A stretch of DNA of 64,000 nucleotides from the NCBI RefSeq assembly GCF_054482525.1, contig NZ_CM137006.1. One strand, written 5' to 3'. Below are positions 43,597 to 44,255 of this stretch, piece by piece. Position 1 is the first letter of the stretch. Every line of letters starts with the position of its first letter. Position numbers and translations under genes: made by a program. Under the pieces are notes generated by a model. The model searched no databases and was not told the DNA's origin. It saw only the letters and a list, made by a program, of their open reading frames with translations.

Positions 43597-44255
43597 CTTA
43601 CCAGCCGCGCCCTAACAGGCGCACACGATCTGACATTTGCATCCAACTTCGTTACTTACGGCCCGTAAACGGGCTGCCCGGATAGGGAATCGATAACTGC
43701 TCTCCCATTTTATCCTCTTCAAGCTGGTGCTTTATGTAATCCTGTATCTTCGCCGTGTTCTTACCCACCGTATCGACGTAGTACCCTCTGCACCAGAACT
43801 CCCTGTTCCTGTATTTGAATTTCAAATCACCAAACTGCTCGTAAAGCATCAGACTGCTTTTCCCTTTCAGATATCCCATAAAGCCGGATACGCTCATTTT
43901 GGGCGGGATCTCCACAAGCATATGGATATGATCTGCACAGCATTCAGCTTCCAGAATCCGTACACTTTTCCACTCACACAGCTTTCTCAAAATACTGCCT
44001 ATTGCTCTACGCTTCTCTCTGTAGAACACCTGTCTTCGGTATTTTGGCGCAAAAACTATGTGATATTTACAGTTCCATCGGGTGTGCGCTAAGCTCTTTT
44101 CGTTCCCCATTGGGACCCCCTTTTGATTTCTTGTTTGACACTTGCAGTTGCCAGACCGCAAGGTGTTTTAACAAATCAAAAGGGGTTTTAATAACTGGCT
44201 TAAAGCTGAAAGCTTTCCGGAACCCCCAGCCTAGCTGGGGGTTTTCTGTGCACAA
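43597..44255 (-). mobile_element. IS200 insertion sequence (boundaries approximate)
   Basis: tnpA flanked by short 3' tail and 5' leader with IS200-type hairpin acccccagcctagctgggggtt; no terminal inverted repeats, as expected. Confidence 0.7.
43652..44110 (-). CDS. tnpA: IS200 transposase TnpA (HUH Y1)
   Basis: 152 aa from MGNEKSLAHTRWNCKYHIVFAPKYRR, near-identical to remembered E. coli IS200 TnpA. Confidence 0.9.
   Translation of the reverse strand: MGNEKSLAHTRWNCKYHIVFAPKYRRQVFYREKRRAIGSILRKLCEWKSVRILEAECCADHIHMLVEIPPKMSVSGFMGYLKGKSSLMLYEQFGDLKFKYRNREFWCRGYYVDTVGKNTAKIQDYIKHQLEEDKMGEQLSIPYPGSPFTGRK

Follow-up and report, generated by a model that had tools for sequence, protein, structure and literature searches.

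The window, that is, the whole 64,000-nucleotide stretch of DNA analysed here, carries a complete 713-bp copy of the insertion sequence IS200C, located on the minus strand between the small genes ymgL and ymgK (Table 1). Very probably, the element was placed there by its own target preference, beside a duplicate of the icd terminator, for reasons that have nothing to do with the neighbouring gene iraM, and only a small effect on iraM is expected. The neighbourhood comprises bluF, bluR, ycgX (42927-43331), tnpA, iraM and a 3' fragment of icd. A previous sequence-only reading had reported an IS200-type element between ycgX and iraM; matches to the Pfam family Y1_Tnp and to the Rfam family STnc490, both far beyond chance, bear this out.

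Table 1. Positions in the window of the IS200C copy, its parts and the neighbouring features
Feature	Position	Strand	Basis and remarks
IS200C element	43542-44254	-	left end 44254, right end 43542; empty-site comparison, gap-free alignment of copies
tnpA, 152-aa Y1 HUH transposase	43652-44110	-	Pfam Y1_Tnp, matches to solved structures
Left-end perfect hairpin, IS nt 12-34	44221-44243	-	bidirectional terminator of IS200
Left-end leader of IS200: terminator hairpin and 5'UTR stem-loop that hides the tnpA ribosome-binding site	44120-44243	-	Rfam RF01405 STnc490
Right-end subterminal hairpin CCTCCGGC-ATA-GCCGGAGG	43552-43570		terminator scan
Insertion target: 43-nt copy of the icd terminator region, hairpin 44260-44282	44255-44297		direct repeat D1, terminator scan
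Second 43-nt repeat: terminator downstream of the icd 3' fragment, hairpin 45129-45151	45124-45166		repeat search, terminator scan
Promoter-like site TTCATA-17-CATAAT, beyond IS200C from iraM	43357-43385	+	promoter scan
ymgL, 36 aa, intact	43384-43494	+	translation; annotated in K-12 and relatives
ymgK, 14 aa (MFSKLAQSSIKAMF), intact, between IS200C and iraM	44444-44488	+	translation
Four PhoP-box-like candidates, 2 mismatches each	44353-69, 44529-45, 44607-23, 44689-705		pattern search
iraM, 107 aa, intact	44749-45072	+	99/107 identical to K-12 IraM; RefSeq annotation of matching loci

The product of tnpA matches the Pfam profile Y1_Tnp ('Transposase IS200 like') over positions 2-121 of 121, with E = 3.8e-38. 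Similarity to solved IS200/IS605 transposases is likewise strong, with E = 4e-23 for 2ec2 and 8e-20 for 2f4f, and extends to the IS608 TnpA 2a6m (E = 3.9e-19) and to 2xm3 (E = 1.9e-16). In sequence alignments with 2ec2 and 2f4f, residues H61-I-H63 fall on the DHIH motif of these proteins and Tyr125 (qdYikhq) on their conserved tyrosine. Furthermore, all 152 residues are identical to those of the tnpA products of loci L003 and L005, annotated as WP_000526135.1. IS200C is a single-ORF element; no other substantial gene fits in its 713 bp, and tnpB is absent. Its length agrees with the approximately 700-715 bp expected of the IS200 group; the Salmonella IS200 measures 707 bp (PMC4513863).

The extent of the element was established by comparison with unoccupied sites. 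When the empty sites of K-12 MG1655 and O157:H7 were aligned to the window, exactly 713 extra nucleotides were found in the latter, and K-12 has no IS at this position, in agreement with the sequence-only reading. The empty sites of K-12 and O157 read TATAAAAACAACGG (...TATTTATAAAAACAACGG... in the aligned context) and, because both junctions fall within a T/A run, the ends of IS200C are uncertain by ±1 nt. On the minus strand, the element reads 5'-TGTGCACAGAAAACCCCC...GGATATTTATTT-3'. Its nucleotides 1-713 align gap-free to five other copies with 99.0-99.9% identity (L003 contributes two of these, PCN033 one and plasmids two), and the limits of similarity at both ends were set by alignments of the flanks of six independent copies. 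Set against the empty sites of K-12 and O157, the filled site shows no target-site duplication beyond the 1-nt ambiguity of the A/T run. The repeat search found no terminal inverted repeats pairing the two termini, and TGTGCACAGAAAA... and ...GGATATTTATTT are unrelated to each other. The span proposed by the sequence-only reading, 43597-44255, was thus correct within 1 nt at its end, but its start lies 55 bp inside the element and therefore leaves out the right-end hairpin. No other copy of IS200C was found in the window, where the only other match is a weak one of 28 nt at 14443-14470. Every sequence feature tested places the element in the IS200 group of the IS200/IS605 family. It is specifically IS200C as judged from the labelling of near-identical copies: at a 99.9%-identical locus in other genomes, RefSeq gives 'IS200/IS605-like element IS200C family transposase', and the name is taken from such RefSeq-labelled copies.

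Subterminal hairpins are present at both ends of the element, as the IS200 group requires. The left-end hairpin has a fold energy of -18.7 kcal/mol on the minus strand and of -20.4 kcal/mol on the plus strand, where, read towards iraM, it is followed by UUUU. The Salmonella IS200 has its left-end terminator hairpin at the same nucleotides 12-34 (PMC4513863). The leader as a whole gives a full-length match to the RF01405 STnc490 model, with 146.1 bits against a gathering score of 56 and E = 3.5e-31, so that the IS200-type leader hairpin described beside tnpA in the earlier reading is well founded. In the leader, the hairpin occupies nt 12-34 and the 5'UTR stem-loop nt 69-138, in agreement with the published layout (PMC4513863), and the repeat search detected the inverted repeat I2 in it, at 44117-44132 and 44170-44185. 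The right-end hairpin folds with -15.5 kcal/mol (z = -4.5), is invariant across 6/6 aligned copies of the IS200 group and is followed on the plus strand by TTTTT, making it terminator-like for transcription coming out of ycgX/ymgL. The sequence-only reading also attributed a strong terminator to IS200. Indeed, hairpins of the terminator type occur at both ends, and both are readable towards iraM.

Two further observations concern the Rfam matches in this region. On the tnpA-sense strand, the STnc490 model scores 146 bits and its match takes in the left-end terminator hairpin, and on the opposite strand it scores only 21.6 bits; STnc490/art200 is described as antisense to the tnpA 5'UTR (PMC4513863), and the Rfam seed may be sense-oriented. 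The matches to SNORD72, BSnc120, tpke11 and L20_leader are all below the gathering thresholds and were discarded as chance matches.

Integrity of the element was considered in view of the description of IS200 as almost dormant (PMC4513863), which would suit a dead remnant that merely looks complete. Such a remnant is extremely improbable here. The ends, the subterminal hairpins and the leader are all intact and the length is the same as that of other copies; the transposase is full-length, retains the HUH motif and the tyrosine, and is identical to other annotated IS200C products; and a query containing the IS found 7-28 matching places in related genomes. The gap-free alignment of 713 nt to other copies, together with the intact TnpA, led us to reject this reading. 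Loss of intact ends, which would have turned the element into a remnant, had been raised in the earlier reading as an objection to it; with both ends, both hairpins and the leader in place, this objection falls away. Judged from its sequence, the IS200C copy is complete and apparently functional.

What lies immediately next to the left end of the element accounts best for its position. Directly 5' of this end, in the orientation of tnpA, the terminator scan identified AACGGGCGTATGGCACGCCCGTT-GTTTTT, in which a T-tract comes after a GC-rich hairpin. This hairpin, which on the minus strand is followed by GTTGTTTTT adjoining the left end, belongs to a 43-nt repeat that is also present in the empty sites of K-12 and O157. 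A hairpin with a T-tract was found at the left end in 6/6 copies aligned by hand, taken from E. coli chromosomes and plasmids, from the Y. pestis IS1541A and from a Salmonella plasmid, and the hairpin differs each time. A second IS200C, in the same orientation, follows the paralogous icd-terminator repeat at L003 3720-4432, equivalent to about 45123 of the window; hence, this type of hairpin is a repeated target.

This arrangement was then assessed on a larger sample. The invariant 22-nt left-end hairpin was searched in a collection of species-representative genomes, which gave 120 loci from Yersinia, Vibrio, Brenneria, Edwardsiella, Mailhella, Oxalobacter, Bacillota MAGs and others; together with the loci collected earlier, 123 distinct left-end flanks of the IS200 group were available. 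A flank was scored as carrying the target when it had a perfect stem of 5 bp or more, at least 3 of them G-C pairs, and at least 4 T among the last 8 nt adjoining the IS. In this sample, to which a small number of genomes contribute most (those of Y. pestis, Vibrio ruber, Mailhella and Bacillota MAGs) and which, consisting of the positions of surviving copies, mixes target choice with selection against in-gene insertions, such a target was found in 98 of the 123 flanks (80%), compared with 1.3% when 5000 positions were drawn at random from the same loci. The T-tract is present in 121/123 flanks, and most of the 25 flanks scored as lacking the target still fold strongly. On average, the last 40 nt of the left flanks fold with -18.6 kcal/mol, as compared with -7.2 (sd 4.2) in the controls. 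Odaert et al. are said to have found, in 1998 in J Bacteriol (180:178), terminator-like stem-loops at 8/14 IS1541 sites and to have proposed them as hot spots. [quoted passage not shown] In Yersinia, an IS1541 located between pheL and pheA adjoins the pheL attenuator terminator (PMC3082878), a position that fits the rule of a hairpin plus a T-tract as target.

The survey yielded two side observations. At L082 (Yersinia pestis NCTC5923, match 349-370), one IS1541 has inserted immediately behind a second one, next to the right-end hairpin and T-rich tail of the latter, which suggests that the right end of IS1541 mimics the element's own preferred target. The exact 22-nt left-end hairpin also occurs, mostly at contig ends, in MAGs of distant groups (L008-L079), namely Bacillota, Peptococcaceae, Mailhella/Desulfovibrio, Oxalobacter, Saccharibacteria and Elusimicrobiaceae; either the IS200 group has spread widely by horizontal transfer or these occurrences are artefacts of binning.

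Comparison with known elements places the window copy more precisely. It has the same transposase as WP_000526135.1 and is 99.0-99.9% identical in DNA to chromosomal and plasmid copies of IS200C over 713 nt; no difference from IS200C was found, only the chromosomal location being lineage-specific. The Salmonella IS200 and the Yersinia IS1541 share its layout, with the hairpin at nt 12-34, the 5'UTR stem-loop, a tnpA of 152 aa and the right-end hairpin, and their left end likewise adjoins a hairpin and a T-tract. Their transposases each differ from the window TnpA at 9/152 residues, and their nucleotide identity to the window copy is about 92% for the Salmonella IS200 and about 88% for IS1541A. 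Over its first 12 nt, the left end differs from group to group. IS608 and ISDra2 are the mechanistic models of the family: they resemble IS200C in having a homologous Y1 HUH transposase, subterminal hairpins in place of inverted repeats, no target duplication and a left end located 3' of a short specific target. They differ in that they also carry tnpB and in that their targets are the tetra- and pentanucleotides TTAC and TTGAT, whereas the IS200-group copies come after a hairpin and a T-tract.

By analogy, the mode of movement of IS200C is most likely that of IS608 and ISDra2. Elements of the IS200 group would be mobilized as single-stranded DNA by the Y1 HUH transposase, with the left end inserting immediately 3' of the T-tract behind a GC-rich hairpin resembling an intrinsic terminator. 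At this site, the hairpin is the 43-nt relic duplicate of the icd terminator; the insertion has left no target duplication, and tnpA reads away from iraM. We infer the single-stranded mechanism from the homology of the transposase to those of IS608 and ISDra2 and from the strand orientation. The GC skew of the plus strand of the window is -0.054 and tnpA lies on the minus strand, hence the tnpA sense strand is the G-rich (leading) strand. Elements of the IS608/ISDra2 type prefer the lagging-strand template, and the tnpA sense strand would be this template, as predicted from IS608 and ISDra2. Target preference, maybe combined with a better survival of copies in such sites, explains the position of IS200C. 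A comparable niche is known from unrelated elements: according to work by Robart, Seo and Zimmerly in PNAS in 2007, class C group II introns reportedly home to sites located just 3' of the stem-loops of intrinsic terminators. As with IS200C, the sites occupied are intergenic and shielded from transcription, but these introns are retroelements with a ribozyme and a reverse transcriptase and have no homology to IS200C, so the analogy is one of niche only.

The insertion is shared by a minority of E. coli genomes. A right-end junction probe unique to this site matched 274 of the 5426 complete E. coli genomes (about 5%), and the carriers include strains labelled ST38, PCN033 and AR_0067. Left-end junction probes, which matched 280-282 genomes, were not counted, as they cross-match the paralogous site downstream of icd. 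A first estimate of occupancy, 164 genomes with a 2.45-kb query, was also dropped; this query included the variable icd 3' fragment and allowed pieces to be joined out of order. The window and L003 differ at 3/1142 positions to the left of the IS, at 2/713 within it and at 4/873 to its right; such an equal divergence of the IS and its flanks would be expected of one ancestral insertion inherited with its surroundings. The sequences are consistent with inheritance from a single event, L003 being the one IS-carrying relative compared in detail. Alternatively, the site could be a recurrent hot spot, with several independent insertions of IS200C at the same nucleotide among the 274 genomes, maybe under selection. 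The separate occupation of the paralogous 43-nt repeat downstream of icd in some genomes, indicating that this type of hairpin attracts IS200C, speaks for such recurrence. It is nevertheless very unlikely, given that the window and L003 have diverged equally little in the IS and in both flanks (about 0.3-0.5%), that the PCN033 locus is 99.9% identical throughout, and that the junctions are identical in each copy inspected. Since the IS and the flanks diverge equally, independent insertions at this nucleotide were set aside in favour of inheritance from one ancestral event.

The repeat adjoining IS200C is one of a pair. The two 43-nt direct repeats are 91% identical and are spaced by 869 bp, with ymgK and iraM between them; in the window, the right-border repeat is unoccupied, and in some genomes it bears IS200C. 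The cassette-free junction, from which the 869 bp are removed, is matched in one piece by 1037 of the 5426 complete E. coli genomes (about 19%). It joins ymgL to the icd 3' fragment and was seen, for instance, in Nissle 1917 and in the type strain ATCC 11775; indeed, the annotation of Nissle 1917 passes directly from bluR-ycgX-ymgL to the icd 3' fragment, with neither ymgK nor iraM. From these repeats and junctions, we conclude that ymgK-iraM is a cassette of 869 bp with duplicated icd-terminator sequence at both borders. The arrangement looks like what an element that had integrated at the icd terminator has left behind, or like a deletion between the repeats. Since the left repeat borders the cassette, IS200C is located just outside it, one nucleotide beyond the left border. 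On the other side of the element, the ymgL stop codon is 47 bp from the right end. Both small genes flanking IS200C encode proteins detected experimentally in K-12, YmgL and YmgK, and the window YmgK is identical to the K-12 peptide (PMC6001520).

The consequences for iraM depend on what the insertion separates from this gene and on what it leaves in place. As described in the sequence-only reading, a complete tnpA lies about 490 bp upstream of iraM on the opposite strand; measured from the left end of the IS to the iraM ATG, the distance is 494 bp. These 494 bp are contiguous with the gene, collinear with K-12 at 93% identity, and contain ymgK. All four candidate PhoP-box-like sites upstream of iraM are located between IS200C and the iraM ATG; in a Shigella PhoP study, ycgW depends on PhoP. 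The one piece of evidence for an upstream element severed by IS200C is the predicted promoter TTCATA-17-CATAAT. In the K-12 iraM/ycgX spacer, Shimada et al. reported an in vitro site of RpoD holoenzyme, an H-NS site and this TTCATA-17-CATAAT sequence (PMC3946193). The sequence is a computational pick of the best hexamers within an RNA polymerase binding peak that covers the whole spacer, and its -10 overlaps the ymgL ATG at 43384; a transcript starting from it could not encode YmgL.

The insertion adds two terminator-type hairpins in the direction from ycgX-ymgL to iraM and places 713 bp of DNA with a GC content of about 46% within an AT-rich tract of the H-NS type. Could IS200C thereby act as a regulatory insulator of iraM, as suggested in the sequence-only reading, its hairpins blocking transcription that begins in ycgX-ymgL or at TTCATA-17-CATAAT and would normally continue into ymgK-iraM, or its GC-richer body stopping the spreading of H-NS across the AT-rich spacer? 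Several observations are in line with this possibility. Two hairpins face incoming transcription on the plus strand, namely the right-end hairpin with UUUUU (-15.5) and the left-end hairpin with UUUU (-20.4 kcal/mol); ycgX, ymgL, ymgK and iraM share the same strand; the GC content of the element, about 44-48%, exceeds that of the flanks, 31% and 25-26%; and the Shimada RpoD and H-NS sites are in the K-12 spacer, TTCATA-17-CATAAT being beyond IS200C from iraM (PMC3946193). On the other hand, the site already held a plus-strand hairpin of -15.3 kcal/mol before the insertion, IS200C is outside the 869-bp cassette, and the candidate PhoP-like boxes and ymgK are all still beside iraM. Moreover, the Shimada promoter is a best-hexamer pick whose -10 overlaps the start of ymgL, and the position of the element is fully accounted for by target preference. 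Altogether, an insulating role appears unlikely.

The 494 bp directly upstream of iraM are left untouched by the insertion, the expected consequence for iraM is small, and the evidence leans against a large effect. We consider it doubtful that IS200C meaningfully alters iraM regulation. It is equally doubtful that, in the approximately 5% of genomes that carry it, the element cuts iraM off from transcription coming from the ycgX-ymgL side or from H-NS spreading and so changes RpoS stabilisation; if this were true, RpoS stabilisation under low Mg2+ or acid stress would be measurably changed in the IS200C lineages. A literature search found no paper linking IS200 with iraM. Independently of the insertion, we noted a repeated motif, ATTTTGTTTAATAT (44578-44591) and ATTTTGTTTTATAT (44614-44627), whose two copies are spaced by 36 bp and lie 120-170 bp before the start codon of iraM. 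It holds half-sites of the TGTTTA type, is less conserved in K-12 and could possibly constitute a binding site of a regulator.

The insertion as such is already known: the transposase is annotated by RefSeq at this locus, and the family is well described. IS200C is here a lineage marker, annotated by RefSeq in hundreds of genomes, and has little weight by itself. It is, however, a clear example of the site choice of the IS200 group. By landing directly after terminator hairpins, these elements rarely break genes and their copies are shielded from outside transcription. Given such a site choice, a copy beside a regulator should not by itself be read as regulatory rewiring. Researchers interested in RpoS control may find the 869-bp ymgK-iraM cassette, missing in about 19% of complete E. 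coli genomes, more useful than the insertion.

Some additional observations concern the right-hand neighbourhood. Similarity of the window to genomes of the PCN033 type ends at 45338, within the icd 3' region. From there, positions 45339-47400 and beyond form an island that is about 97% identical to O157:H7 and contains an acetyltransferase, an HTH regulator and ompT, and the combination of this island with IS200C was found in no complete E. coli genome of the collection searched. The gene ompT is a member of the PhoP regulon. The only zero-mismatch match to the PhoP box in the 64-kb window, TGTTTATAGTTTGTTTA, is located on the minus strand at 47251-47267, 84-100 bp upstream of the ompT start codon (47351), and would thus fit this membership.
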